DNA from: a virus
UHGV virus genome: UHGV-1380027
DNA: 64,000 bases
Direction: 5' to 3' (one strand)
Below the pieces are notes generated by a model. It was not told the origin of the DNA, ran no database searches, and saw only the letters and a program-made list of their open reading frames with translations. Each line of letters starts with the position of its first letter. The stretch's first letter is position 1. Positions 20,147 to 44,719 of this stretch are shown piece after piece. Both the position numbers and the translations under genes were made by a program.

Positions 20147-22129
20147 TTATTTGATGTTATTCTTTGTATCAATCAGTTCACGGTATTCAATCATAGCAGG
20201 AGTGTCCCAATATTTCAAGCCTACATGCTTCAAAAGTGGATATTTCTTTTCCAATCTTGCAATATAGGCCTTCCCGCACTTAACCCGGTTGGCGATTAAG
20301 ATTTTGGCACGATGATTTAGCTCACCGTACTTCCACGTGGTGCTACCTTCCCACTTGTGGAAATGTGGCCGATAACTTCCAAAATCCTGCATGGGGATAA
20401 TTTTACCTAACTGTCTGCACAGGCTGTCATATGAAGTTTCATTTGCTGCGCGAGTTAGTAAGAATTTCCAAGCATCCTCTTTCAACAAATGTTCCACATT
20501 CTTCTCTGTAACATATTGGCAATCAGGATCAGTCCAAAGCAGACGAGATTCCGACACCAGGTACAGATCTTCCCCTTCAGGAATCTGGAGTGCCGCACGC
20601 ACACGGTCATAATCTTGCTGGTAGATGTTGCTCATCTGCCCTAGCCAACAACTTCCGCGTTGGATATCCCCCTCATACGGTATGCAGTGCTTAATCTTCC
20701 TGAACTCTGCCTTAGTAATACGCTCACGCCGGAAGTAACCATCCTTCTCAAGTTTTTTAACCCAATAGCCTGGTTCGTAACGGGTTTTGGTTTCACCTTT
20801 CTTCGTAGGTCGGCGTGGAAGCTCCGATAACAATTTGACCGTATCTGCAAAAAACGGATGGTGTGCCGCCTCTTTAAACTCTTTCACCAGATCCGTGTTA
20901 CGGCAATAGAAAACGTTGCGTCCGGTAATCTCGCTTAAGTAGTTACACTTATTCCGGTTATATTTGCCGTCTCCGTCGTTAAATACTAAATAAACTCCCC
21001 GTAAGAATTCTACCTTTCCGTAGCAGGCGTAACCTATGCGGCCTTTATTTAAGCCGCCAGCGAAGATCTCGCAGTCCCCCAAATTTCCTAGCCCTGTTTC
21101 TTCCCAGCGGTCATACATAAAATTCTTACCGAAGATGTGCCCGAACACTCCACTGTTCTTCATCATCTCGCGTGCTTCTGAGGATGTTTTTGCTGTCTCC
21201 AGTTCTGCAACAACTTCTGCTCCACGAAGGCGAATGCCTTCTTTGACAAAAGCTTCCAAACGCTCTTGGAATCCACCATCGTCGTGACCTTCTATGGTCC
21301 ATTCACGCCCTGGGTTAATATTGCAATCTCCGATAGGGATCTCTACACAAATTGCAGGATAATCTATTAGTGTCTCCAGGAACTTAGAACGGTAAGGTTG
21401 GTGACCCATTACCACACGACTCTCGTCAGAGCTGGTATAACCCTTCAGGATGGTCATCTTCCAACCATCTTTTTCATAATAATACTGCGCCTCTACTTTG
21501 TCTCCCTCCAGCATCTTGCTCGTCATCGGGTCGGTGACAGTGAACGGAAATTTTGCATAGCGCAGGCATGATGCAATAGCGGTGCGATATTTCAGAACAT
21601 GCTCTTTCTTAACATGAAACTGAACTTTTACCCCGTTGTGCTCTTCAGTCTTCCGCTCACGGATCTTGGTGACATTTGGGATACCCTGGTCCAAGAACAA
21701 TAGGTATGTGCTTTCCACACCGTTGTGCACACTGATTACATCGAAAGTGTCCACCATGCTGAACGGGGCCTTTGAACCAACACCTTTATTGCCTACCAGA
21801 GCGTTGCTGTTGCGCTTGGTCGACTCACCGAGGTTCATGAAAGTGTTACGGACCATCTCTTCTGACATGCCTAATCCAACGTCCTGCACAAAGAAGTATG
21901 GTTCAAGGTCTGTAGGAGAGTGAATGATGATCGGAACATCACCCCGTCCAGACTCAACATGGGAGTCCACAGCATTGAAGATCGGTTCACGGCAGCTTGC
22001 CAGTACCTTATCTTCATAAATCCCTTTGATGATTAGCCCAAAAGTCTCTTTGTTCAGAGAAATTGATCCCCTGGTTACCTCCATATTCCCAGTTAGCACC
22101 GCTTTAGTTTCATTGCTGTTTACAATCAT
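20147..22129 (-). CDS. GHKL/Bergerat-fold ATPase domain protein, rIIA-like (660 aa)
   Basis: N-box REPIFNAVDS, G1 DVGLGM, G2 GNKGVGSK in N-terminal third; SD AAGGAG. Confidence 0.5.
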   Translation of the reverse strand: MIVNSNETKAVLTGNMEVTRGSISLNKETFGLIIKGIYEDKVLASCREPIFNAVDSHVESGRGDVPIIIHSPTDLEPYFFVQDVGLGMSEEMVRNTFMNLGESTKRNSNALVGNKGVGSKAPFSMVDTFDVISVHNGVESTYLLFLDQGIPNVTKIRERKTEEHNGVKVQFHVKKEHVLKYRTAIASCLRYAKFPFTVTDPMTSKMLEGDKVEAQYYYEKDGWKMTILKGYTSSDESRVVMGHQPYRSKFLETLIDYPAICVEIPIGDCNINPGREWTIEGHDDGGFQERLEAFVKEGIRLRGAEVVAELETAKTSSEAREMMKNSGVFGHIFGKNFMYDRWEETGLGNLGDCEIFAGGLNKGRIGYACYGKVEFLRGVYLVFNDGDGKYNRNKCNYLSEITGRNVFYCRNTDLVKEFKEAAHHPFFADTVKLLSELPRRPTKKGETKTRYEPGYWVKKLEKDGYFRRERITKAEFRKIKHCIPYEGDIQRGSCWLGQMSNIYQQDYDRVRAALQIPEGEDLYLVSESRLLWTDPDCQYVTEKNVEHLLKEDAWKFLLTRAANETSYDSLCRQLGKIIPMQDFGSYRPHFHKWEGSTTWKYGELNHRAKILIANRVKCGKAYIARLEKKYPLLKHVGLKYWDTPAMIEYRELIDTKNNIK

Positions 22130-22626
22130 TTATTGCGCTCCTTGTAGTAGATATGACTCCCGAATTGAGCTGTCCTCTGCATCTTTTTTGCCCATTTCGG
22201 TCGTACTTTTGTTGTATGGTAGTGTGTTGCTCCACCTGTTATATCCATAGCCATGTATGCAACATGGTTGTTATTATAGACCTTTAGAAGCATCTTTGCA
22301 AGACTTTTAGCGTGATCCCATGAATCTTTTTCTGTCACCTTAAAAGTTTTGCCGTGGTTTGTCCACGAAAACTGGTTAGGTTGGTAGACAATCTTTCTTA
22401 TAGTGTCTGGGTATTTGGGGTGAGATTTCCTGTTTAGTGTGGCAAATCCGGATGCCAGCATCCCCATCGTGCCATCCCCTCTAGCCTCCCTGTAGATATT
22501 GCATGCTAGAATGTTTTCCTTAGTATCCGACGGCTTGCAAGTGTGATATACTTTTTGTTTTGGTGCTGCAACAACAGGCAGCGATAAAAATGCGCTCAAA
22601 ATAATAGCAAAGATTTTAATTTTCAC
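22126..22626 (-). CDS. secreted cell-wall hydrolase, SleB/CwlJ-like (166 aa) with signal peptide
   Basis: N-terminal signal peptide MKIKIFAIILSAFLSLPVVAAP; motifs CNIYREARGD and YQPNQFSW. Confidence 0.6.
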   Translation of the reverse strand: MKIKIFAIILSAFLSLPVVAAPKQKVYHTCKPSDTKENILACNIYREARGDGTMGMLASGFATLNRKSHPKYPDTIRKIVYQPNQFSWTNHGKTFKVTEKDSWDHAKSLAKMLLKVYNNNHVAYMAMDITGGATHYHTTKVRPKWAKKMQRTAQFGSHIYYKERNK

Positions 22627-22646
22627 AATAGCTCCAAATAGAAAAT

Positions 22647-22662
22647 CCCCGCCGAAGCGGGG
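22647..22662 (-). terminator. rho-independent terminator hairpin (UUCG-loop type)
   Basis: minus-strand RNA CCCCGC-UUCG-GCGGGG followed by AUUUUCUAUUU; the U-tract overlaps the SD of the hydrolase gene. Confidence 0.6.
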
Positions 22663-22675
22663 TGTGTCTTAGAAA

Positions 22676-23056
22676 TTAATCGTAGTGTGCCAAAATCTCT
22701 CCATCGTTGCAAGTCCCCTCTACGAAGTTGTGAAGATTCATGCATTCATCTTGATAGAAGAATTTACCGCTTTTCAGCCGTAGACCAAACAACTCCGCAT
22801 CTCCACGATGGCAAGCCTCTACAAGTTCATAGATTTCATACGGTAATTCCCCATCGTCATGGAAGAACCCCGCTTTATCGTTGACATAGATGAAGAAATA
22901 GTCACTGCTGTCGCAAGCGTCCAGTATTTTAAACCAGATTTCATCCACATCTTTTTCTCGGATATCGATCACACAAGTGGAGCTGCATTCGTACTCCTTC
23001 TCCGGCTCCTCGGTCAATACCACTAGGTAGTTTCCCCGCTTACCTACTTTAGCCAT
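22676..23056 (-). CDS. hypothetical protein (126 aa)
   Basis: co-oriented ORF. Confidence 0.5.
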   Translation of the reverse strand: MAKVGKRGNYLVVLTEEPEKEYECSSTCVIDIREKDVDEIWFKILDACDSSDYFFIYVNDKAGFFHDDGELPYEIYELVEACHRGDAELFGLRLKSGKFFYQDECMNLHNFVEGTCNDGEILAHYD

Positions 23057-23065
23057 ACAACCTCC

Positions 23066-24250
23066 TCAAGCTTTAGCTAAAATGGCGCTAAACTCTTCAC
23101 CAAACTCTTTTACAATCTTCATCAGGTTTGGGTATGCTTTGATCAGCTGAGCAACGATCTTGTCCCTGCCTTTACCAATAAGTAAGGCATTTCCTAAGGC
23201 GTTAGGTTTCATCATCGCCATAAAGACTGAGAATACAAAGTCTCGGTTCTCATCCTTGAAATTTTCCCAAAGGAAATCAAGGAAGTTTGCCACACAGCTG
23301 ACGAGATCTTCGTCGGAGATACTTGCATTTTCCATCATATTACGAATAGCGATACAACCTTCAGACCCCAGAATCCACAAGATGTCTGGCTGCTTAGGAC
23401 CTACATATTCTTTGCAGCCTCCTGCCATAATCCGACCGATTTCTGGCAAGTTTCGTTTCTTGGTGTGGTAGGTCCAAATTTCTACCGCTGCAGTGTGACC
23501 AATTGCACCTTGTAGAAGGACACGGGCCATAGCGTCAGAAATAATACCGCTGTCAAAATCGTGCAGGATGTCAGATGCAGCAACCCAAGATCGCGGTGTA
23601 GCAAAAGATGGACAATTAATCTCAGCCATGGCCTCATAATTATCGATGGCTGATGGGACTCTTTTCAGATATCCAATTACCGAGGAGTGCACCCCATTAA
23701 GGAATGCATAGTCCTCAATAAACACCTCTGCACTGCTTGTAACTTCTACAATGATAAAGCGGTTAGCTAGAGGAGCTTCGAGCGCCGAAAGAACAGCACC
23801 GTCTGTAGCACGGTTACCTGCAGCTACAAAAACAGAGCCCTTAGGAAATGCATAGGTGCCGCACTTGTGGTCGAGCATAATTTGCATTGCAACCTTCTGC
23901 AGGTAGTTATCTGCATGAGTAAGCTCATCTAGAAAGATAATTCCGCTCCAGTCCGGATCTGCAGGCCAAAATTCTGGAATTGCAAACACTGTGCGTGTAG
24001 TCCCATCCGACTCTACAGGGATAGGTAGCCCAGATAAGTCAGCAGGATCTTTATCTGACAACCGCACGTCAACCAGGTTGTCATCTCGCTCACCGAACAT
24101 GTTATCAGCAATCTGCTTCATCACCTGGCTCTTCCCCACGCCCATCGGTCCTAAAATCAGGACAGATCGGTTATGACGCTGGGCAAATTGAATAATAGCT
24201 GGCAACTCGCGGACAGTGATTTGACCACTTTCGAATACGTTTCTTGACAT
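23066..24250 (-). CDS. AAA+ ATPase, MoxR/AAA_5-like (394 aa)
   Basis: Walker A LGPMGVGKSQ, Walker B IIFLDELTHA, sensor-region AAGNRATDG. Confidence 0.65.
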   Translation of the reverse strand: MSRNVFESGQITVRELPAIIQFAQRHNRSVLILGPMGVGKSQVMKQIADNMFGERDDNLVDVRLSDKDPADLSGLPIPVESDGTTRTVFAIPEFWPADPDWSGIIFLDELTHADNYLQKVAMQIMLDHKCGTYAFPKGSVFVAAGNRATDGAVLSALEAPLANRFIIVEVTSSAEVFIEDYAFLNGVHSSVIGYLKRVPSAIDNYEAMAEINCPSFATPRSWVAASDILHDFDSGIISDAMARVLLQGAIGHTAAVEIWTYHTKKRNLPEIGRIMAGGCKEYVGPKQPDILWILGSEGCIAIRNMMENASISDEDLVSCVANFLDFLWENFKDENRDFVFSVFMAMMKPNALGNALLIGKGRDKIVAQLIKAYPNLMKIVKEFGEEFSAILAKA

Positions 24251-24519
24251 TAGTAAAAGTCCTCTACTTGTGTGTAAGTGTTTTCAAAGTTTTCCAAAAC
24301 AGACATCACATCGGATCTGTCAATATCATACGCAACTCTCCAGCCATATGCAACCCTTTCTGCTGTTGCCTCTTCTGGCGCTAGTCGTCTGCTGGCATAA
24401 AAGAGTGTTGGAGTACACTTTCTTGCTTGCCCTCTAACTTTCCCATAATAATATCTGTGAATATCTTTGTCAAAATTTAATTCTTTTTCTGCACGAAGTT
24501 CGTACTGCTGGTATAACAT
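24250..24519 (-). CDS. hypothetical protein (89 aa)
   Basis: co-oriented ORF, start overlaps stop of upstream gene. Confidence 0.45.
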   Translation of the reverse strand: MLYQQYELRAEKELNFDKDIHRYYYGKVRGQARKCTPTLFYASRRLAPEEATAERVAYGWRVAYDIDRSDVMSVLENFENTYTQVEDFY

Positions 24520-33853: not shown

Positions 33854-33866
33854 CTATAAAAAGAAA

Positions 33867-33891
33867 GGGGCCATTTGGCCCCCCTTTTTTT
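33867..33891. terminator. bidirectional rho-independent terminator between convergent blocks
   Basis: GGGGCC-ATTT-GGCCCC stem-loop flanked by AAAAGAAA upstream and TTTTTTT downstream. Confidence 0.7.
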
Positions 33892-33903: not shown

Positions 33904-36900
33904 TTAAAGAGAGAAAGTCGCGTAGGCTCCCAGACGATACTGCTGGTCACCAGGGAACATAACACCTATAGAGGCTGTCCCTAGAATCCTGCCTTCCTTT
34001 CCAGACTCCATTCTGAACCCTACCCATCCTGAACTCCTTGCAGCCTCGATGTTGTCGCTATACCCGAAAGTGGCAAGATCGTCAACACCAGCCCCAAACA
34101 GCAACTGAAGCTGACTTCTCGGAAGCCCTATAATTTCAGGAATATATGCACCAAAGTACACCATCTGCCCTACCTTAGGACCGCTGCCGTACTCCATCGG
34201 CTTGCTTGTAGCAAAAGTCTTCATACCAGAAGTCCCTGCCGGATTAGGGTATGCCCCGTTTGTTGCTGTACCTATCCACATTCTCCACTGTGGTGTCATC
34301 TGTTTGACAGTAAAAGATGTTGAAGACGTTTTGCGACCTGCATCATCAGTAGCTACAAACTTTATAGTGACATTACCAGGAGCTTTAAATGTTACCAGCC
34401 CTGTGGTAGCATCCACTGTTGCAATGTTGGTATTACTGCTTTCCCAAGTCTTTCTAATCCCAGACACATTGGAAGGGGTAATAGAAGGTTCCTGCATCTG
34501 CAGTTTACCACCCACAATCCCTATGCCGTTACCTGGGTTATACAACGCACCAACTTCATCTATAATGTTACCTGCCTTGAGACTGTACTTCCTTGAGAAG
34601 TTGTAAGTTCCGTTATAAGCGTGTGTCCCTGAGAAGGTGACATCTGCTTTTCCGTAAGAGATGCAAACCAAAGCATACTTCCTGTCAGGCAACGTTTCTC
34701 CAGTCTCTGGGTGAGTTTTACCTACCTGGAACACACTCGGGTCAGTGGAGTCGTGGCTATCACTAACGGAGCTTGGACCACCCATCAGTTGTGACAAGCA
34801 ATTCCTTACCCATGTCCAGTTATTGTCACTGGAGAAGTCTACGGTCAAATCAAACACAACCCACTCATTTGGCTTCCACACAGGTGTTGTGATCAACTTA
34901 CCAACACCCCCACCCTGAAGAGTAGGAGATTGTTCAGTGATCAGGGCAGAGTATGCCAGAGTGCCCAACTGCATAGTCTGGCTTGCTGTCCTCACTACCT
35001 TAGAATCAGCATCTGTGAAGTTGTTGATGATCTGGAATGTGCCATAAGTGTTTTTACAGGTAATTCTGGCGTTCAGTGTGTCAATCTTCCTCACATCTGC
35101 CATAGCAGTGTTAGACACAGAGAAGTCAGAAGCTTTAGCTGAGTTTGCCGCAACAGCAGGATCAACGTTAAGAGTTGCGTTGAACTGACAAGCAGGGGTA
35201 ACCAGCAGCTTGTTATCACCTATTTGCTTCCATGAAACACTTTGAACAGGGAGATTCCATTTAATACCTGAGAAAACTTTAGCAACCCTTGGTCCCAGGG
35301 CTCCAGTCCTGTTGTCTTTACAGCACATGGACATGGTGATCGTTGACGGAGTTGCCTGACCAAACAATTGCTGTGCTTTTACAGAGGACATAGTGTAGAA
35401 ATTGTCCTTAACAAACTCATCAGCCGCTAACGATCCGTCAGATCTCCACCATTGTACCTGGTAGCCTGTCTTATCCCAGCCACCAACCTGCTTCAAGTCC
35501 TCCCAAGAGATTTCCAGATCCCCAGTGGTAGGGTTGATTGCCGCAGTTCCTGGTGTTCCAGATGACCATATTGGGATATCGAACCACGCTGGTTTAACAG
35601 ACTGCACTGCGTTAGGTCCTATTGCAGCAGCAAGTTGTTGACCCATCAATACGCGAGCATCTTTCACCAGGCCCCGCTCAATCATAGATCCAGAGTAACC
35701 CTCTTTCTTATATGCAGAGGACCCGTTCAAATGGATGAGCCTGCTGCAGTCGAAGCCATACGCTCCACCACCATTAGGGTCTGCGAAGTTAGTTATGATT
35801 CTATCCCTAATATTTTTCCATGCCCTACCCCCAATCTCGTAGTCATGGTCATAACATCTTTGCAGCGTTGTCCAGCAAATGATTGCCATTCTTCTGCCAC
35901 CTGTAAACCCGAAAGCGCCGTCATTCAACTCTTTCCACAGGTAGCAGTTAGTTGTCCACATAGCTCTGTGAATGTTGAACCAGTTTATGGACTTGGCTGA
36001 GTTATCCCACTGAGTCCCAGGTAATTCAGGCCACACTGCATTAACCAGCATGTCTTCTGTTCCTGCATCAACCAAGAACCCTCTTACCTTTTTACCCATG
36101 CCTACCCTGTCTTTTGCAATCCAACTGCCAAACAATCTCAGTTTTGGACCGTAAACAACATCTTCCGGATGCTCAAAAGAGACATACTTTAAGTAGATTG
36201 TTGGGTCACCGTAGGTGCCATCACAAACACTTTTGTGCATGTTTTCGCCAAGATCTAGACGAAGCCCTGTCACCACTTTAGACGTGTCAGTGAATTTGTC
36301 TGTTAAATCAAATTCATACCACCACCATCCACCACCAAGCATAAATTTCTTGCATCGAGTATTGTCTGTATCAGATATTCTCTTATCCCCTGCAAAAGGT
36401 GAATCAGCAAACTGATAATGCAGAGCAGTCTCGAATAGATGTGTTGAGGTTCCGTTTTCTGCAAGAACTTGCTTACCTATTAAGTCGCACTTAATGATCA
36501 TCACAACACGTTTGTACCCGTTTGTTACTGGAACTTGCATAGATATGGATGTTCCGTCCATGTTCGATCTTAGTGCTGTCATGATGATATATGGGTCAAC
36601 AGCGTTGCCTAAAGTTTCAGGCCCTGGGATTATCTTGTACTTCTTAACCTGCCCCATGAACCTGTCACTGGCGTAAGTTGCAGCCTCAAAGCAAGATCCT
36701 CCATTAGGCAGTTCGCCAGGACCCCAGAAAAATGCGCCATAACAGTTATAAAACCACTTGTTAGGGTCGTATTTGTTCTTGAAGGTCTGAACCTCGTTAG
36801 CCTGTTTTGTCAAGAAAACCTGCGTATCTGTAAAGATTGCAGGATTTACTCTCGCCTGACGTGGAGGGTACCCTGTCGATTGGTTAAACCACTGATTACA

Positions 36901-39540
36901 AGAGTAATCTCTCATATAGTCATAATCAGAGTATTTGTTTGCATCTTCGTTCCAACACATATTTAGGTTGGTACCGCCCATGCACACAATGTATTCTGCG
37001 ATATACTTATCGCTTCTGGTAGGAATACCTATGAACCATCTATTAACAGGCTCATCCCAAGCTGTGCGCTCATCTTTAACGCAGATAGCAATCCAGTCAT
37101 GTGTTCCTGTTTTCTTGCATACATCTCGCTTCATACCGTAGTAGAACTCTTTAGTATTCGGCTCAGGTGCATTTATCAGGTAACTCCATGCCTGATTTGC
37201 ATAAGTTCCATTGGTTCGCGGGTCATGATCAAAGGCATACATGATGATCCTTTCCCCACCAAGATGTTCGCCAAGAGTAACTTTGACATTCACATCGCCG
37301 TAACCATTGCGAACAACATCCATATTATCAATAGAGATGCCCCTAGGGGTGTAGGCAATTTTCAGAGAGCTATCTTCACTGGTGCCTCCAAGTGTAATCC
37401 CTATGTTGTTTGTTGTCCCGTCGGCATATCTTACTGTGGCTTCCCAGCGTATTCCGAAATATCCTGCATCATGGCTGACAATTTTCAGTGTACGAGCACC
37501 TGGGTGAGGTTTTCCAGGATCAGGCCAAGGGTCTGGGTGTTCGTGGACAGTCAACGACGTTCCGTTTTGCTCGTTAACCTGCAACATTTTACCGCCTCTG
37601 CCGTTAGGGTTGAACTCCCATACGGCCTGTGTCTGCACTAAGTTGTTGTAGGTATTTCGTCTCTGATCATAAATCTCTTGGGTAACATCATAGGTGACTG
37701 ATCCAGCATCCATTCTGTGGAGTCGGACCATATACGATGTATCTCCTTCTACCGCAGGCTGAGTCCCATTCAGCCCGAAGTATACAGTATCGTTAACATG
37801 GAACTGCTTGTTTCTACCAACGGTATGCCACTTACCGTCAGAAGGATACGCAGGAACTATGGTGTTCCAGTTCAAAGTCCTTGTCGTGTGAGTTCTTCCT
37901 GTGCCATGTTTGTCATGATAGGTTATTTTTACAGAGTACAGGCCACGTCTGTTAACATTCCTGTTATACTGAGTAACAACAACTTCGTTGGCCCCGCCGT
38001 GGTTCCAGTTGGTGGAGAATTGGTAATTTGCATCTGTAACAACCGTACCCGCAGCATTTACCAGTTCAATCTTGTCAATAATGAACGTAGCCCCCTCTGG
38101 CTGAGGCTTCAATTTCATCTTGACCGTGTCACCAATGTAAATATTGCTAACACTGCTAACACCGTTAACGTCAAAAATATCATCAACACCCCAACTGTCT
38201 ACTGGGACATTTTTATACCAATTCTCAGGAACCTCTGTGAACCCCTGACTATTAAGTCTGCCGCCAAACAGGTTGTTAGAGCCTGCAAAACTTCCCCTTG
38301 GGATGCCTGACCACCAAAGTTTACCATTAACAACAGTAAAGGTACCTAAAAAACCTTCTCTGTGAATGCCCTGGAAATAAACACTCTCTGTCCAGCTAAC
38401 TGGGAGGCGTTGCTCAACGTATTTGGCTGTGGCAAGAGCTTGATAGTGGATAAAATTGGCCCTAGGGTTATTGTTTGCAGATTGTGCGCCAATATCATTA
38501 CATAAGTTGCGAGAGAATCCGCGATACTGCTTAGTGCCATTATTGAAGAAAATGCCACTTGTTCCGTACCCACGAGCCATTATTACTTCATGGGTGTAGG
38601 TAATATTTAAGGAACGCCATGTATCATCTCCCCAGACATCTTGCCCGTAGAATACGTTAACAAGCTGCTGATCATTAGGCTTGTGCATCCTCTGCGTTGC
38701 AATTATCGCCCCGTTCGGACCACACATGAATCCTTTCCACTCCTCCTCTGCAGGAATGCCTTTCAAATCGTTGCGAGTAATCTGAGCAGGGGGCCAAACA
38801 AGGTCGTTTCTACTGTTGTTTCTCAGAAAGTCGTATCCAGCAATCCAAAAACCTCTGGGCCCACCGAAAATAACAGAGTTGTCATGCACCTCGCAGTTGA
38901 TACTTGGGTTTTTCCAAGGGCCTGTTTCAGGATTTTCCGATGTTTCACCAATCTTTACAGGGGTTGCATGCTGGTTCTTATCTACATGTAAAGATCCGTA
39001 GGTGTTGTTACCAGACCCGTACAGGTGTAAAATGCCGTCACCCTCAGCCTCTGCCATAACCCAAACAGTGTTGTTAATACCGCCCATTACCTCGATAAGG
39101 CGCTCTGGGTGGGTGTCAAGGTGCAATCCTTGAACAATCTGTTCCGGAAGAGGTGTCCACTCGTTTACGCAAACATCGTTACCACCTGCCGCAGTGGATC
39201 CGATAAGACCTGCAGTGCAGCCGATGTAGAAAAACTGGTTATCAAAAGTCCGGATCACAAACGCACGGTCTGCTCTCCACACATGATCAACATTCCAGGC
39301 CGTCTCGCTCGGGTAGTTTATAGGGTTACGATCCCCAGTGCGACACTCCCCGAACTTGTTATAGCCAGTAATATTAAGCTGACCATCGTCAAAAAGTATA
39401 GCTAAGCTATTTACATAAGCTACTGTAGTGCTTGTACCGTCACTGTTGTCTATTGGGTATGACAGAACAGCAAGTTCCTTAACTCCACCCCTCTTATCGA
39501 GGAAATGACGACCAAGTTTTAGCAAAGGGATTGGAAGCAT
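33904..39540 (-). CDS. giant tail fibre-like / host-recognition protein (1878 aa) with N-terminal RCC1-like repeats and C-terminal Ig-like (Big_2-type) domain
   Basis: repeats GYNKFGECRTGD, YGSGNNTYGSLH; segment VTFKAPGNVTIKFVATDDAGRKTSSTSFTVK; position at distal end of tail module. Confidence 0.45.
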   Translation of the reverse strand: MLPIPLLKLGRHFLDKRGGVKELAVLSYPIDNSDGTSTTVAYVNSLAILFDDGQLNITGYNKFGECRTGDRNPINYPSETAWNVDHVWRADRAFVIRTFDNQFFYIGCTAGLIGSTAAGGNDVCVNEWTPLPEQIVQGLHLDTHPERLIEVMGGINNTVWVMAEAEGDGILHLYGSGNNTYGSLHVDKNQHATPVKIGETSENPETGPWKNPSINCEVHDNSVIFGGPRGFWIAGYDFLRNNSRNDLVWPPAQITRNDLKGIPAEEEWKGFMCGPNGAIIATQRMHKPNDQQLVNVFYGQDVWGDDTWRSLNITYTHEVIMARGYGTSGIFFNNGTKQYRGFSRNLCNDIGAQSANNNPRANFIHYQALATAKYVEQRLPVSWTESVYFQGIHREGFLGTFTVVNGKLWWSGIPRGSFAGSNNLFGGRLNSQGFTEVPENWYKNVPVDSWGVDDIFDVNGVSSVSNIYIGDTVKMKLKPQPEGATFIIDKIELVNAAGTVVTDANYQFSTNWNHGGANEVVVTQYNRNVNRRGLYSVKITYHDKHGTGRTHTTRTLNWNTIVPAYPSDGKWHTVGRNKQFHVNDTVYFGLNGTQPAVEGDTSYMVRLHRMDAGSVTYDVTQEIYDQRRNTYNNLVQTQAVWEFNPNGRGGKMLQVNEQNGTSLTVHEHPDPWPDPGKPHPGARTLKIVSHDAGYFGIRWEATVRYADGTTNNIGITLGGTSEDSSLKIAYTPRGISIDNMDVVRNGYGDVNVKVTLGEHLGGERIIMYAFDHDPRTNGTYANQAWSYLINAPEPNTKEFYYGMKRDVCKKTGTHDWIAICVKDERTAWDEPVNRWFIGIPTRSDKYIAEYIVCMGGTNLNMCWNEDANKYSDYDYMRDYSCNQWFNQSTGYPPRQARVNPAIFTDTQVFLTKQANEVQTFKNKYDPNKWFYNCYGAFFWGPGELPNGGSCFEAATYASDRFMGQVKKYKIIPGPETLGNAVDPYIIMTALRSNMDGTSISMQVPVTNGYKRVVMIIKCDLIGKQVLAENGTSTHLFETALHYQFADSPFAGDKRISDTDNTRCKKFMLGGGWWWYEFDLTDKFTDTSKVVTGLRLDLGENMHKSVCDGTYGDPTIYLKYVSFEHPEDVVYGPKLRLFGSWIAKDRVGMGKKVRGFLVDAGTEDMLVNAVWPELPGTQWDNSAKSINWFNIHRAMWTTNCYLWKELNDGAFGFTGGRRMAIICWTTLQRCYDHDYEIGGRAWKNIRDRIITNFADPNGGGAYGFDCSRLIHLNGSSAYKKEGYSGSMIERGLVKDARVLMGQQLAAAIGPNAVQSVKPAWFDIPIWSSGTPGTAAINPTTGDLEISWEDLKQVGGWDKTGYQVQWWRSDGSLAADEFVKDNFYTMSSVKAQQLFGQATPSTITMSMCCKDNRTGALGPRVAKVFSGIKWNLPVQSVSWKQIGDNKLLVTPACQFNATLNVDPAVAANSAKASDFSVSNTAMADVRKIDTLNARITCKNTYGTFQIINNFTDADSKVVRTASQTMQLGTLAYSALITEQSPTLQGGGVGKLITTPVWKPNEWVVFDLTVDFSSDNNWTWVRNCLSQLMGGPSSVSDSHDSTDPSVFQVGKTHPETGETLPDRKYALVCISYGKADVTFSGTHAYNGTYNFSRKYSLKAGNIIDEVGALYNPGNGIGIVGGKLQMQEPSITPSNVSGIRKTWESSNTNIATVDATTGLVTFKAPGNVTIKFVATDDAGRKTSSTSFTVKQMTPQWRMWIGTATNGAYPNPAGTSGMKTFATSKPMEYGSGPKVGQMVYFGAYIPEIIGLPRSQLQLLFGAGVDDLATFGYSDNIEAARSSGWVGFRMESGKEGRILGTASIGVMFPGDQQYRLGAYATFSL

Positions 39541-41619: not shown

Positions 41620-42666
41620 TTAAGCATAAGATATAGTGATCCATTGACCGTTTACAAATTTTTGAATGGCACCAGTCCAATAGTCGCCTTGATACGGGTG
41701 TTTATAGGCGTAATTGCCGGAGCACATTACATGCCCAGGGTATACTCTTGATTCTCTGTAGGTGGTTCTGAAACGGTTTGCTATCCTTACATCTTCAACA
41801 CCCCTACTAGGCATAGGAATAGTAAGGTTACCACTGCTATCTGCGCTGCTACCATTTACCCTGCGGACCACGTTTCTCCCACCAACTGTTGCATATTGAC
41901 CCCTGGCGGTGTTATCGTTACAATCCACTCTTCCACCTATTTGAGCGCTGCCGCAGGATTGTTGTCCATTAACAGTGGCTCTTGGTATCGTTACCGCATT
42001 AGCATTTGCAGAGGAGCTTTTTGCATCATTGCATTCAAGATTCCCTTGGATAGCCAGTCTTGCACGGTTGGCAGTTATAGCATTAAGCTTCATAGCCGAA
42101 AACACAGGCTGCCCACCAGAAGGTTGAAATCTCCAACGGAAACCGTCTATTTGGTGAGAAGGATCATCAAGGTCTGTGCCGTCAGCGCCGCCGATGTTGT
42201 CCATAATCCAGAAATCCATCATCGTTTTGTCTGGAGTTATGGTGGTGTATATCGCTGCATTGTCTGTTGACGCGGATGCAAACTCGATTCTTTGAAGACC
42301 CAAAGTTTGAGTCTGGGTCATTGTGTCCCCAGTCTTGTCAACATACAGGTCATCCATTTCTTCAGGCGAGTATACATTGAGGACTTTACGTGCAGCAGCT
42401 TTGTCTGGAACGTCTGCCAGATTATTAGTGACCCTTAAGAATCTATTATCCCATCCAGGGACAACATCTTCTGTTAAATGCTTTAGCCACGCAGAGAGCA
42501 TGTGGAGTTCAAAGTTAACAACTTCACATGCTATCCTTTGTGTCATATCCCAACCTTTCAATCTCTCTTCTTTGTTCGGTTGAGACTTGTTCAACTCTCC
42601 TGTATTTTCAAGCACAACATCCTGATTGGCCCAAATATCGAGAGGGATAACTGGTTTAGTCATCAC
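41620..42666 (-). CDS. tail fibre protein, paralog 2 (348 aa)
   Basis: GDTMT motif; N- and C-termini homologous to 43679..44719 (C-terminal VNGQWITISYA). Confidence 0.6.
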   Translation of the reverse strand: MMTKPVIPLDIWANQDVVLENTGELNKSQPNKEERLKGWDMTQRIACEVVNFELHMLSAWLKHLTEDVVPGWDNRFLRVTNNLADVPDKAAARKVLNVYSPEEMDDLYVDKTGDTMTQTQTLGLQRIEFASASTDNAAIYTTITPDKTMMDFWIMDNIGGADGTDLDDPSHQIDGFRWRFQPSGGQPVFSAMKLNAITANRARLAIQGNLECNDAKSSSANANAVTIPRATVNGQQSCGSAQIGGRVDCNDNTARGQYATVGGRNVVRRVNGSSADSSGNLTIPMPSRGVEDVRIANRFRTTYRESRVYPGHVMCSGNYAYKHPYQGDYWTGAIQKFVNGQWITISYA

Positions 42667-43079: not shown

Positions 43080-43664
43080 TTAGAGGGTAGGTCGTTCCGG
43101 GAAGAAAATGTCAGGGGCTTTAGATGTATCTATTTCAAGAAGTTTTACCCTGTACATTTTCAAATCTCTGATGTTGCGTTTTTGGTCATCAGTAAGATCG
43201 TATTCAAGGTCAATCATGTCTTGATAGGCACCAATTCTAGCAGTAGCCCAAGCAAGTTCTGTCTCTATGACACCCTCTGCCTGTTGAACAAAGAATTCAT
43301 TGTCTGTGACAAATTCATCACCAACTAAACGCAAAGCGTCGTGGTGGAGCATAATGTTTTCTGGTACCTCTTCTTTTTTGGCGATAACCACACGAAGACC
43401 TGGAGCAGGCCACAAGGCATCAGGTTCTTCTGTAGATGTCTTAAGAATACCCTTCTCGTCAACAAGTAAGAAGATACAGCCGGGATTTTCTTGTCGCAGT
43501 GTTCGTGATTGCACATACCAATCGCCATCATCATTACGTAAAAAATATCCAGTGTATGCTGTGTAATCCTCAACCTCCTGAGGAGTCAGCTCCTTGGTCT
43601 CCTTGTTGGTGTAGTATTCGCCAGATCCCGGTTGGTAAAGTTTAAACTCTTGAAGTATTTTCAT
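43080..43664 (-). CDS. tail fibre assembly protein (Tfa / P2 gpG-like), 194 aa
   Basis: C-terminal signature DLKMYRVKLLEIDTSKAPDIFFPERP resembles Tfa consensus (WKxYRVxLxRVDTSxAPDIxWPxxP); directly downstream of fibre gene. Confidence 0.7.
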   Translation of the reverse strand: MKILQEFKLYQPGSGEYYTNKETKELTPQEVEDYTAYTGYFLRNDDGDWYVQSRTLRQENPGCIFLLVDEKGILKTSTEEPDALWPAPGLRVVIAKKEEVPENIMLHHDALRLVGDEFVTDNEFFVQQAEGVIETELAWATARIGAYQDMIDLEYDLTDDQKRNIRDLKMYRVKLLEIDTSKAPDIFFPERPTL

Positions 43665-43678
43665 GCTAGTCCTCCGAT

Positions 43679-44719
43679 CTACGCATAATTAACAGTGATC
43701 CATTGACCATTTACAAGTTTTTGTAAAGGTCCTGCCCAGTAGGTTGAACCACGCATCTCTTTTTTATCACCAAAATGCCAACCTGTGACAACGTAGCCGT
43801 TGCGAACTGGAGATTCAGAAACACCATCAACAAGTCTTGCACCGATTCTGATATCCTGTACCCCTGTCTGCGGGATGGTGATCGTTACATCTCCGTTACC
43901 GTTAGCCGTCACTCCATTCACAGAGCGCACCACATTTCTGTTACCGACAACACAATGCTGGCTTCTTACAACCATACTGTCACAACTTGCACCGCCATCA
44001 ACATATACGGACCCAGCTGTCAACTGACTAGCCACATTACAGTTGGTGAATGTTGCTGTGCTGCTGATGGTAAGGTTGTTACACCGCATGTTATCGACAA
44101 CTTCAACATTACCTACCACTTTCAACAGCGCACGGTTAGCCGTGATCGCGTTCAGGTACATCAAAGTGAACTCTGGATTAATGTCTGGCTGAGTTGGCTG
44201 GAATCTCCAACGAAACGCATCTACTGTAGATGTGCCACCATCATCAAACGCCCCAGTGTTATCACTTAACCCAAAGTCGAGAGTTGTCTTATCTGGACCA
44301 ATAGTTGTCTCTATCCAAGCCTTATCTGTCTCGGCAGCTTTAAAGTTGATACGCTGCAAACCTAAGGGGCCTGTCATTGTATCGCCTGTAACTTTTACAT
44401 ACCTGGCGTCTGCCTCTTCCTTAGTGATAATCCCAAGGTTTCTACGGGCAACAGGAATGTTCAAAAGATCGCTCAGGTTATTATCACGTACCAGATAACG
44501 GCCCTCTTGGGCAGGGATCTGCTCGTCAGCAATATATTTTGCCCAAGTCCCGAGCATATTGAAAATATAGTTAAGTTCTTCACATGACGGCTTTTGACCA
44601 AGATCCCAACCTTTTCTCCACAAATCATCAATCGGGCGTAGCCTGTTCTGTCTGTGGGTGTTAGGCAGAACCTGATCCTCCTCTGCCCAAATCTCTAATG
44701 GAAAACTAGGTTTTGACAT
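43679..44719 (-). CDS. tail fibre protein, paralog 1 (346 aa)
   Basis: GDTMTGPLGLQRINF motif; homologous to 41620..42666. Confidence 0.6.
   Translation of the reverse strand: MSKPSFPLEIWAEEDQVLPNTHRQNRLRPIDDLWRKGWDLGQKPSCEELNYIFNMLGTWAKYIADEQIPAQEGRYLVRDNNLSDLLNIPVARRNLGIITKEEADARYVKVTGDTMTGPLGLQRINFKAAETDKAWIETTIGPDKTTLDFGLSDNTGAFDDGGTSTVDAFRWRFQPTQPDINPEFTLMYLNAITANRALLKVVGNVEVVDNMRCNNLTISSTATFTNCNVASQLTAGSVYVDGGASCDSMVVRSQHCVVGNRNVVRSVNGVTANGNGDVTITIPQTGVQDIRIGARLVDGVSESPVRNGYVVTGWHFGDKKEMRGSTYWAGPLQKLVNGQWITVNYA

Follow-up and report, generated by a model that had tools for sequence, protein, structure and literature searches.

A divergent RCC1-like domain, probably a beta-propeller, at the N-terminus of the 208-kDa rV5 gp27-type protein that closes the tail-fibre locus of a Vequintavirus

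The rV5-like phages of Escherichia coli (Vequintavirus) are widely used against pathogenic E. coli, and the closest described counterpart of the gene considered here is found in rV5 itself, where it is ORF 27 and carries the record label 'hypothetical protein; cell wall surface anchor'. Its product, protein 27 (1878 amino acids, aa; 208334 Da), has been detected in purified rV5 virions by multidimensional protein identification technology (MudPIT), from 3 peptides and 9 spectra that cover 3.1% of the sequence (PMC3606486 supplement), and the assignment of genes to individual fibres has been called unclear for the rV5-like phage group (PMC8594841). Here we examine the orthologue of this gene in UHGV virus genome UHGV-1380027, of which a stretch of 64,000 nucleotides, called the window throughout, was analysed. 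We report that the N-terminal ~445 aa of the encoded protein are a divergent RCC1-like repeat domain, probably folded as a propeller, that this domain is homologous to shorter proteins occupying the same gene slot in sister genera, that an M-x-P-I-P start is paired with the conserved C-terminus of a neighbouring fibre, and that the domain map includes an orphan core of ~1000 residues. The gene, its immunoglobulin (Ig)-like domain and its virion association are all known already, the gene being carried by more than 100 deposited genomes, and what is added here is useful annotation together with testable hypotheses, not a new kind of system.

Judged by sequence identity, the window is a piece of a Vequintavirus genome and the 1878-aa protein is the orthologue of the 208-kDa virion protein rV5 gp27. 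The gene shares 99.9% of its nucleotides with that of Escherichia phage vB_EcoM-ECP26 and 92–97% with those of many Vequintavirus genomes; rV5 ORF27 (ABI79098), also of 1878 aa, is 95% identical to the window protein in amino acid sequence; and 121 phage records match the gene at 80–99.9% nucleotide identity, the match extending across 80% or more of its length in 108 of these. Given this length and this conservation, an open reading frame (ORF) of 1878 codons is not a chance feature. A preliminary description, made from the sequence alone, had placed the largest ORF of the window at the end of the tail module, and the coordinates, the ORF sizes (the runners-up have 1277 and 1198 aa), the PHROG context and the terminator all agree with this: a continuous minus-strand block of tail, baseplate and fibre genes runs from about 34 kb to 64 kb (PHROG assignments and GC skew), the 1878-aa gene closes it, and the genes past the terminator hairpin (Table 1) converge on it. 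Rho-independent terminators are annotated at the equivalent site in rV5 and in Salmonella phage PVP-SE1.

The same description had pointed to RCC1-like repeats near the N-terminus, quoting three motifs, GYNKFGECRTGD (aa 59–70), GGINNTVWVMAEAEGDG (aa 153–169) and YGSGNNTYGSLH (aa 174–185), all of which are present. Searched against Pfam, the full-length protein gives no RCC1 match at E ≤ 1; the N-terminal 470 aa alone match PF25390, 'RCC1-like domain', at E = 8.2e-5 (22.5 bits, the cut-off being 150) and RCC1_2 at E = 0.085, and the protein's own match to an RCC1/RLD profile (PF00415, PF13540 or PF25390) stays below the curated threshold. The weak PF25390 match nevertheless recurs in 12 of the 16 family members, and the RCC1 assignment, weak when made directly, becomes significant by way of homologues. 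With the N-terminus as a tblastn query, 95 further phage records were retrieved at less than 60% identity. The gp128 of the Phapecoctavirus tuntematon (890 aa) and PVP-SE1 gp40 (604 aa) align across the entire ~450-aa domain at 24–33% identity, score 23.9 and 36.1 bits with PF00415, for which the gathering score is 21.7, match PF25390 at E ~ 1e-10, and have Big_2 after the RCC1-like domain. A profile search added further tail proteins of 570–609 aa annotated RCC1, RLD and Big_2, one of them aligning with 98% of the domain and 29% identical to it.

When compared with the PDB, a 13-sequence profile of the domain, dominated by these shorter homologues, matches UVR8 (9.5e-16), the RLD of HERC1 (4.8e-12), HERC2 (2.2e-10), RCC2 (3e-7) and RPGR (3.5e-6). 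Its positions 133–187, which correspond to aa ~148–197 of the protein and contain the second and third of the motifs quoted above, align to every blade of UVR8 and also to blades of HERC and RCC2. Seven candidate blades (B1 to B7) fit aa 20–445, and hhalign relates B1 to B3 (E = 1e-3), B3 to B6 (E = 5e-4) and B2 to B7 (E = 0.012); B4 and B5 are without detectable similarity in these blade-against-blade comparisons, and between three and five of the seven blades are recognisable by sequence. No internal repeats were found by self-BLAST, and the quarters of the N-terminal domain, compared with one another by hhalign, gave marginal results. Structure prediction with AlphaFold2 was run in two segments on alignments of 16–17 sequences, giving a mean predicted local distance difference test (pLDDT) score of 42.7 for aa 1–1000 and of 53.9 for aa 800–1878, and in the resulting model aa 1–445 are all-beta at a pLDDT mostly below 50.

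In the databases this type of domain has carried a different meaning. Both tuntematon gp128 and PVP-SE1 gp40 match PHROG families labelled 'regulator of chromosome condensation', and the phage RCC1-like families 4219, 7220 and 16766, which bear that label, are filed under DNA/RNA metabolism. A role in DNA condensation or packaging has been suggested for phage RCC1-type proteins, of which those of Septuagintavirus W70 (W70_237–239), from another genus of the subfamily, are virion components confirmed by mass spectrometry (PMC11370258); PVP-SE1 gp40 is likewise among the virion proteins of PVP-SE1 (PMC11370258 Table S6). Since these proteins are encoded in tail modules and fused to Big_2, we regard a role in chromosome condensation or DNA packaging as an artefact of the family name.

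The distribution of the N-terminal domain follows a single gene slot. In the Phapecoctavirus and Seunavirus records inspected, the N-terminal match is the last slot of the fibre module, and the tblastn search also matched the record of Cronobacter phage GAP31. The related genera have in this slot shorter 'RCC1-like + Big_2' tail proteins with an M-x-P-I-P start, and the first ~200–450 aa are the only part common to the slot proteins of Phapecoctavirus, Seunavirus and GAP31; when the C-terminus was compared with the short slot proteins by BLASTP, only the Big_2 segment aligned. Four of the first five residues (Table 1) do not vary among the 13 aligned N-terminal sequences, the distant ones of which are 24–32% identical to the window protein, and the N-terminal family, phrog_11922, belongs to the PHROG category tail. 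In phi92, gp152 occupies the same slot and starts with MYPIPLF, which is followed directly by two Big_2 domains, without a propeller; a tblastn search of the phi92 fibre region with the 1878-aa protein gave no match. In the phi92 record, gp152 and gp153 (21321–22983) together match one 655-aa PHROG family, phrog_32204, and on this basis may represent a single gene, either split or wrongly called. The second of them, gp153, has a weak signature of a SASA carbohydrate esterase (E = 0.0079, below the cut-off) and matches the family of N4 gp65-type 'tail sheath and receptor binding protein'.

A more distant case is PhiTE_242, the last gene after the phiTE_241 fibre, whose product starts with MIPFAI and matches the N-terminal domain profile at E = 9.6e-5 and a probability of 58% in hhalign; its similarity to the first two blades probably reflects remote homology. 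This gene, at the genome end of the phiTE record (23109–24350), is unannotated and encodes 413 aa with the motifs LYVTGSAACTGLG and KWWGSGSLSMLG. Its product has no match in Pfam and looks like a stand-alone RCC1-like propeller.

The gene that precedes the slot is also conserved in a particular way. In the window it is the rV5 gp28-type tail fibre (Table 1), orthologues of which carry Pfam Phage_phiTE_241_N/C, and over its aa 452–581 it shares 49–50% identity with the C-terminal parts of tuntematon gp129 and phi92 gp151, the remainder of these two proteins (Tail_spike_N plus collagen repeats) being unlike the gp28 type. In every genome inspected the slot is preceded by a phiTE_241-type fibre or by a fibre with its C-terminal domain. 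This co-conservation of the MxPIP start with the gp28 C-terminal domain suggests that the upstream fibre may, with its distal domain, provide the docking site for the N-terminal peptide and the propeller. In a receptor-binding tip, conservation of the distal domain is unusual, and the gp28-type C-terminus co-occurs with a downstream gene starting with MxPIP.

At the other end of the protein, the Ig-like segment of the preliminary description turned out to be a genuine Big_2 domain, which scores 34.8 bits with PF02368 (gathering score 22.8) and is modelled as an Ig-like beta-sandwich. The all-beta modules predicted well by AlphaFold2 span aa ~1339–1424, ~1589–1759 (with pLDDT up to 92 at Big_2) and ~1774–1878. 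Foldseek against the PDB retrieves Ig- and cadherin-like strings (NUP210, protocadherins and the S-layer proteins Sap and SbsB) with E down to 7e-12; because the TM-scores are only about 0.1–0.2, these matches are generic evidence for a beads-on-a-string arrangement only. Matches in BFVD include Ig-bearing phage and tail proteins, Hoc-type outer capsid proteins and PVP-SE1 gp40, and a PDB sequence search finds the Ig domains of intimin (1e5u/1f00) at E ~ 1e-3. The NCBIfam model 'intimin' gives 21.4 bits over 39 residues, the cut-off being 1400, and the protein is not a member of that family. PF26918, listed for an orthologue, was considered as an extra domain and set aside, as it is a weak Ig_Eae match to the same Ig domain. 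Over its C-terminal 285 aa the protein matches phrog_215, which is labelled 'structural protein with Ig domain' and belongs to the PHROG category head and packaging. No coiled coil, collagen, fibritin or S74 chaperone match was found with Pfam in the protein or its segments, and the models show separate globular beta-sandwich modules; such features of trimeric fibres do occur in the neighbouring fibres of relatives.

Between the two ends lie ~1000 residues without detectable relatives beyond a narrow family. Weak matches to PF16403 (Bact_surface_Ig-like) at aa ~450–565 occur in 12 of the 16 family members, and these matches aside, segments of aa 451–1430 have no Pfam match at E ≤ 10; a PDB profile search with aa 840–1340 gave nothing at E ≤ 10, and phmmer with aa 451–1430 against 1.84 billion representative proteins found no relative outside the family. 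In a word-indexed search of a database of 5.8 billion proteins, the whole family amounts to 15 clusters when the full protein is the query, and the N-terminal 470 aa retrieve 2 relatives. In the models, the centre of this region is an alpha-rich core of two pieces (aa 846–943 and 1130–1330) with a jelly-roll module inserted between them, and many acidic, His and Trp residues of this core are invariant, among them E1162, D1163, H1191, E1235, E1280 and E1288. The motifs of its second piece are GTEDMLVNAVWP, NWFNxHRAMW, ICWTxLxRCY, EIGGRxW and EGYxGSMIEWG. The inserted module (aa 944–1129) probably resembles a carbohydrate-binding module (CBM), as possibly does the C-terminal tip.

Table 1. Features of the rV5 gp27-type gene and its surroundings, with positions in the window
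Feature	Position	Strand	Basis or remark
Complete coding sequence, ATG to stop, 1878 aa + stop; rV5 gp27 (ORF 27) orthologue	33904..39540	-	ORF listing; nucleotide and aa identity; phrog_15684 end to end over the full length
N-terminal peptide MLPIPLLKL; candidate virion-docking peptide	39514..39540	-	invariant M1, P3, I4, P5
Divergent RCC1-like repeat domain, probable beta-propeller, aa ~20–445	38206..39483	-	sub-threshold PF25390; RCC1/RLD matches of homologues; PDB profile search
Most canonical RCC1 blade, aa 148–197: LIEVMGGINNTVWV...LYGSGNNTYGSLHVDKNQHATPVKI	38950..39099	-	family profile against UVR8; hhalign
Ig-like beta-sandwich module, aa ~450–565	37846..38193	-	all-beta AlphaFold2 segment, pLDDT 58–76; weak PF16403
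Family-specific beta-rich region, aa 566–845	37006..37845	-	beta-sandwich at aa ~735–845, AlphaFold2 pLDDT 60–80, low elsewhere
Conserved alpha-rich segment 1, aa 846–943	36712..37005	-	invariant Trp, Tyr, Asp, Glu; helices at low AlphaFold2 confidence
Beta-sandwich/jelly-roll module, aa ~944–1129	36154..36711	-	AlphaFold2 pLDDT 70–85; probably CBM-like
Conserved alpha-rich segment 2, aa 1130–1330	35551..36153	-	dense invariant columns; AlphaFold2 pLDDT <35
String of FN3/Ig-type beta-sandwich modules, aa ~1339–1670	34531..35526	-	AlphaFold2 all-beta, pLDDT 57–87; Foldseek; BFVD
Big_2 domain, Pfam PF02368, aa 1682–1733	34342..34497	-	E = 1.6e-8
C-terminal beta-sandwich tip, aa ~1774–1878; candidate ligand-binding end	33907..34221	-	most variable part among Vequintavirus alleles
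Bidirectional intrinsic terminator	33864..33885	both	GC-rich hairpin with T-tracts on both strands; ends the tail operon and the convergent plus-strand operon
rV5 gp28-type tail fibre, 581 aa	39589..41334	-	phrog_4549 and phrog_15437, tail fibre

Conservation along the protein is strongly graded. The N-terminal domain is the most conserved part, both within the genus and across the family, and the alpha-rich core comes second; the C-terminal ~450 aa are swapped for unrelated sequence in 13 of the 15 family members, and among Vequintavirus alleles the variability peaks at aa 1751–1800, where column identity is 65% compared with 92–98% in the N-terminal domain. Anchoring through the N-terminus is favoured because the N-terminus is conserved, the C-terminal end is variable, and the MxPIP start is kept in phi92 gp152, which has lost the propeller.

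The gene lies in the tail-fibre module of the window, and the rV5 orthologue is present in virions, as found by mass spectrometry in the literature; had the protein been absent from virions, the idea of a distal tail protein put forward in the preliminary description would have failed. Holding it with slightly less than even confidence, we lean towards the reading that the protein is a low-copy component of the tail-fibre apparatus, anchored by its N-terminus and acting as a long, modular accessory adhesin for glycans. The M-x-P-I-P peptide and the propeller would form the anchoring module, which probably docks on the conserved C-terminal domain of the upstream gp28-type fibre and would make the protein the outermost element. 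The remaining ~1400 residues would project outward as a flexible succession of Ig-like, CBM-like jelly-roll, FN3-like, Big_2 and terminal beta-sandwich modules, an arrangement that suits the earlier suggestion of a multi-domain adhesin. The C-terminal modules would bind surface polysaccharides weakly and reversibly and so raise the phage concentration at cells, or at surfaces rich in glycans, ahead of the stage at which the dedicated fibres bind the N4 glycan receptor (NGR) or enterobacterial common antigen (ECA) and the lipopolysaccharide (LPS) core, the variable tip tuning glycan specificity. Fraser et al. (2006, J Mol Biol 359:496) reportedly proposed that Ig-like domains on phage structural proteins are weak accessory binders of carbohydrate. 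T4 Hoc offers an analogy for accessory binding through Ig domains. As proposed here, the protein is likely accessory and not essential for plaque formation, and such a role fits because the infection receptors of the rV5-like group, NGR/ECA and the LPS outer core, have been attributed to other fibres (PMC8594841).

Some deposited genes are interrupted. Between the deposited ECP26 gene (MK883717, 8001–13637) and the window there are 8 differences in 5637 positions. One of them, TAT to TAG at codon 617 (window 37690–37692), splits the ECP26 gene into two annotated coding sequences, and the gene is also annotated in pieces in the Vequintavirus records V18, APECc02, YP-6, ime and JES2013. These split and nonsense records may hint at a dispensable gene or may reflect sequencing errors in a long one.

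Several points weigh against the adhesin reading. The highly conserved aa 846–1330 are not accounted for if the protein is an adhesin only, and a propeller of the RCC1 type or a string of Ig domains is usually a monomer, unlike the trimeric anchors of classical fibres. Of the structure prediction in segments, which the preliminary description had proposed, the C-terminal part delivered well-predicted beta modules; both models are otherwise poor, with the propeller and the alpha-rich core below a pLDDT of 50, for which reason the propeller call is a matter of sequence profiles. Docking on gp28 is suggested by co-conservation and by nothing else, the mass-spectrometric coverage of rV5 gp27 is low, and the ECP26 nonsense codon could be a sequencing error. 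In the literature we found no functional study of the protein, nor work on binding, localisation or genetics of its orthologues, and published cryo-electron microscopy (cryo-EM) studies of phiTE and phi92, which are Vequintavirinae or relatives, have not placed a homologue of it.

An opposite orientation, which we consider unlikely, would make the propeller a ligand-binding head for a conserved host structure and would attach the C-terminal Ig/Big_2 region or tip to the virion in the manner of Hoc. Propellers are commonly ligand-binding platforms, an example being the propeller domain in the receptor-binding protein of Staphylococcus aureus phage phi11; the high conservation of the RCC1-like domain would suit a conserved receptor as well, and the C-terminal 285 aa match a family filed under head and packaging. 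Against this, it is the C-terminal third that is replaced in most family members and the N-terminus that is kept, the MxPIP start outlasts the propeller in phi92 gp152, the tip bears the usual mark of a host-facing part in being the most variable within the genus, and a gene order with a co-conserved upstream fibre C-terminus suits docking through the N-terminus.

The core raises a different question, since the preliminary description had left room for an enzyme-bearing receptor-binding protein. According to such an explanation, to which we give no better prospects than to the reversed orientation, aa ~846–943 and 1130–1330 with the inserted CBM-like jelly roll (aa 944–1129) would be a new glycosidase, lyase or esterase serving as a depolymerase on capsule, O-antigen or ECA. 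The region's rank in conservation and its many invariant Asp, Glu, His and Trp residues speak for it, as does the adjoining CBM-like module, which is typical of glycoside hydrolases; phi92 gp153, in the same slot, has the weak SASA-type esterase signature given above (E = 0.0079, below the cut-off), and other fibres of the rV5-like group bear glycan-hydrolysing or deacetylase domains (PMC8594841). However, no catalytic family was recovered in Pfam (segments at E ≤ 10), in NCBIfam, or in phmmer and profile searches of the PDB, and this part of the earlier suggestion found no backing; the region has no homologue outside the family, its model is unusable at a pLDDT below 35, and conservation by itself is no proof of catalysis.

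Less probable again is a combination in which the MxPIP peptide and the propeller are an unrecognised fibre-on-fibre adaptor, joining a monomeric giant to the conserved C-terminal knob of a trimeric gp28/phiTE_241-type fibre, and the core of aa 846–1330, with its CBM-like insertion, is a new family of carbohydrate-active enzymes. If this were true, rV5 gp27 would form a distal fibre that is branched and armed with an enzyme, and it might match a fibre density not yet assigned in these phages. Weakest is the proposal that the gene just happens to stand at the end of the tail operon and encodes a whisker protein or a decoration of the head or neck: the head-and-packaging category of phrog_215, the Hoc-type outer capsid proteins among the BFVD matches and the rV5 label 'cell wall surface anchor', which does not name a fibre, lean that way, but it is improbable in view of the slot's place among the fibre genes, with which it is transcribed, in each of the related genera examined, the tail category of phrog_11922, the separate head decoration proteins of Vequintavirinae (e.g., rV5 gp61) and the generic nature of the structural matches to Ig strings.

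Some further observations concern the surroundings of the gene and its records. Upstream of the gp28-type fibre, two paralogous short tail fibre genes, both phrog_4465, lie at 41620–42666 and 43679–44719 with a chaperone-like gene between them (43080–43664), and this arrangement is a known feature, described for rV5 gp30 and gp33. Full-length copies of the 1878-aa gene, at ~93% nucleotide identity, occur in 15–16 'Campylobacter phage' records (MG0656xx, host C. jejuni); as these records measure 128–143 kb, the usual size for Vequintavirus coliphages, they probably bear a wrong host label or come from contaminated preparations. A partial protein of 318 aa assigned to Eggerthella lenta (955-bp contig) is 99–100% identical to part of the protein's N-terminus and probably represents phage contamination of a bacterial assembly. 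As for labels, several records call the product 'Ig-like domain protein', others use 'structural protein with Ig domain', and in BASEL phages it appears as 'lateral tail fiber protein with intimin domain' (e.g., bas49_0041).

The interest of this protein lies in its being the largest product of the tail-fibre locus, at 208 kDa, with so much of its length peculiar to one narrow family. An RCC1-like N-terminus shared across genera, its pairing with a fibre C-terminus and a variable tip provide handles for experiments, and the domain findings set right two database labels that mislead, 'chromosome condensation' and 'intimin'.

Compared with known systems, rV5 gp27 and the other Vequintavirus orthologues are the same gene with the same length, position and terminator, and there is no substantive difference between them and the window protein; existing annotations of the gp27 type mention Ig or Big_2 only and leave the RCC1-like N-terminal domain unrecorded. 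PVP-SE1 gp40 and tuntematon gp128 (phrog_11922) resemble the window protein in standing in the last slot, in the MxPIP start, in the N-terminal domain and in Big_2, and differ in being two to three times shorter, in lacking the ~1000-aa central region and the C-terminal tip, and in having more canonical RCC1 repeats, which pass the PF00415 threshold. For this reason the architecture, judged unusual for a fibre in the preliminary description, is so in part: RCC1-like plus Big_2 is normal for this slot in Seunavirus and Phapecoctavirus, and RCC1-type virion proteins have been reported (PMC11370258). In phi92 (Justusliebigvirus), the slot is filled by gp152/gp153 and preceded by gp151, which at its C-terminus shares 50% identity with the gp28-type fibre of the window; there the propeller is absent, the gene is split or followed by gp153, and neither protein is named in the phi92 cryo-EM paper. 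With the RCC1 propellers of UVR8, the HERC1/2 RLDs, RCC2 and RPGR, the window domain shares the signature h-h-x-x-G-x-N-x-x-G-x-L-G and a size, ~425 aa, that fits seven blades, whereas a Ran guanine-nucleotide exchange factor (Ran-GEF) or chromatin function is not expected for the window protein. T4 Hoc, the C-terminal domain of lambda gpV and T5 pb10 represent one to four Ig domains decorating a capsid or tube protein, whereas here the Ig modules are within a stand-alone 208-kDa protein of the fibre module that also has a propeller and a large orphan core. The likeness to intimin and invasin is local, being confined to one Big_2-type domain with a weak Ig_Eae match; the window protein is without LysM, the beta-barrel anchor and the C-type lectin domain, and the label 'intimin domain' therefore stands for the Ig fold only.

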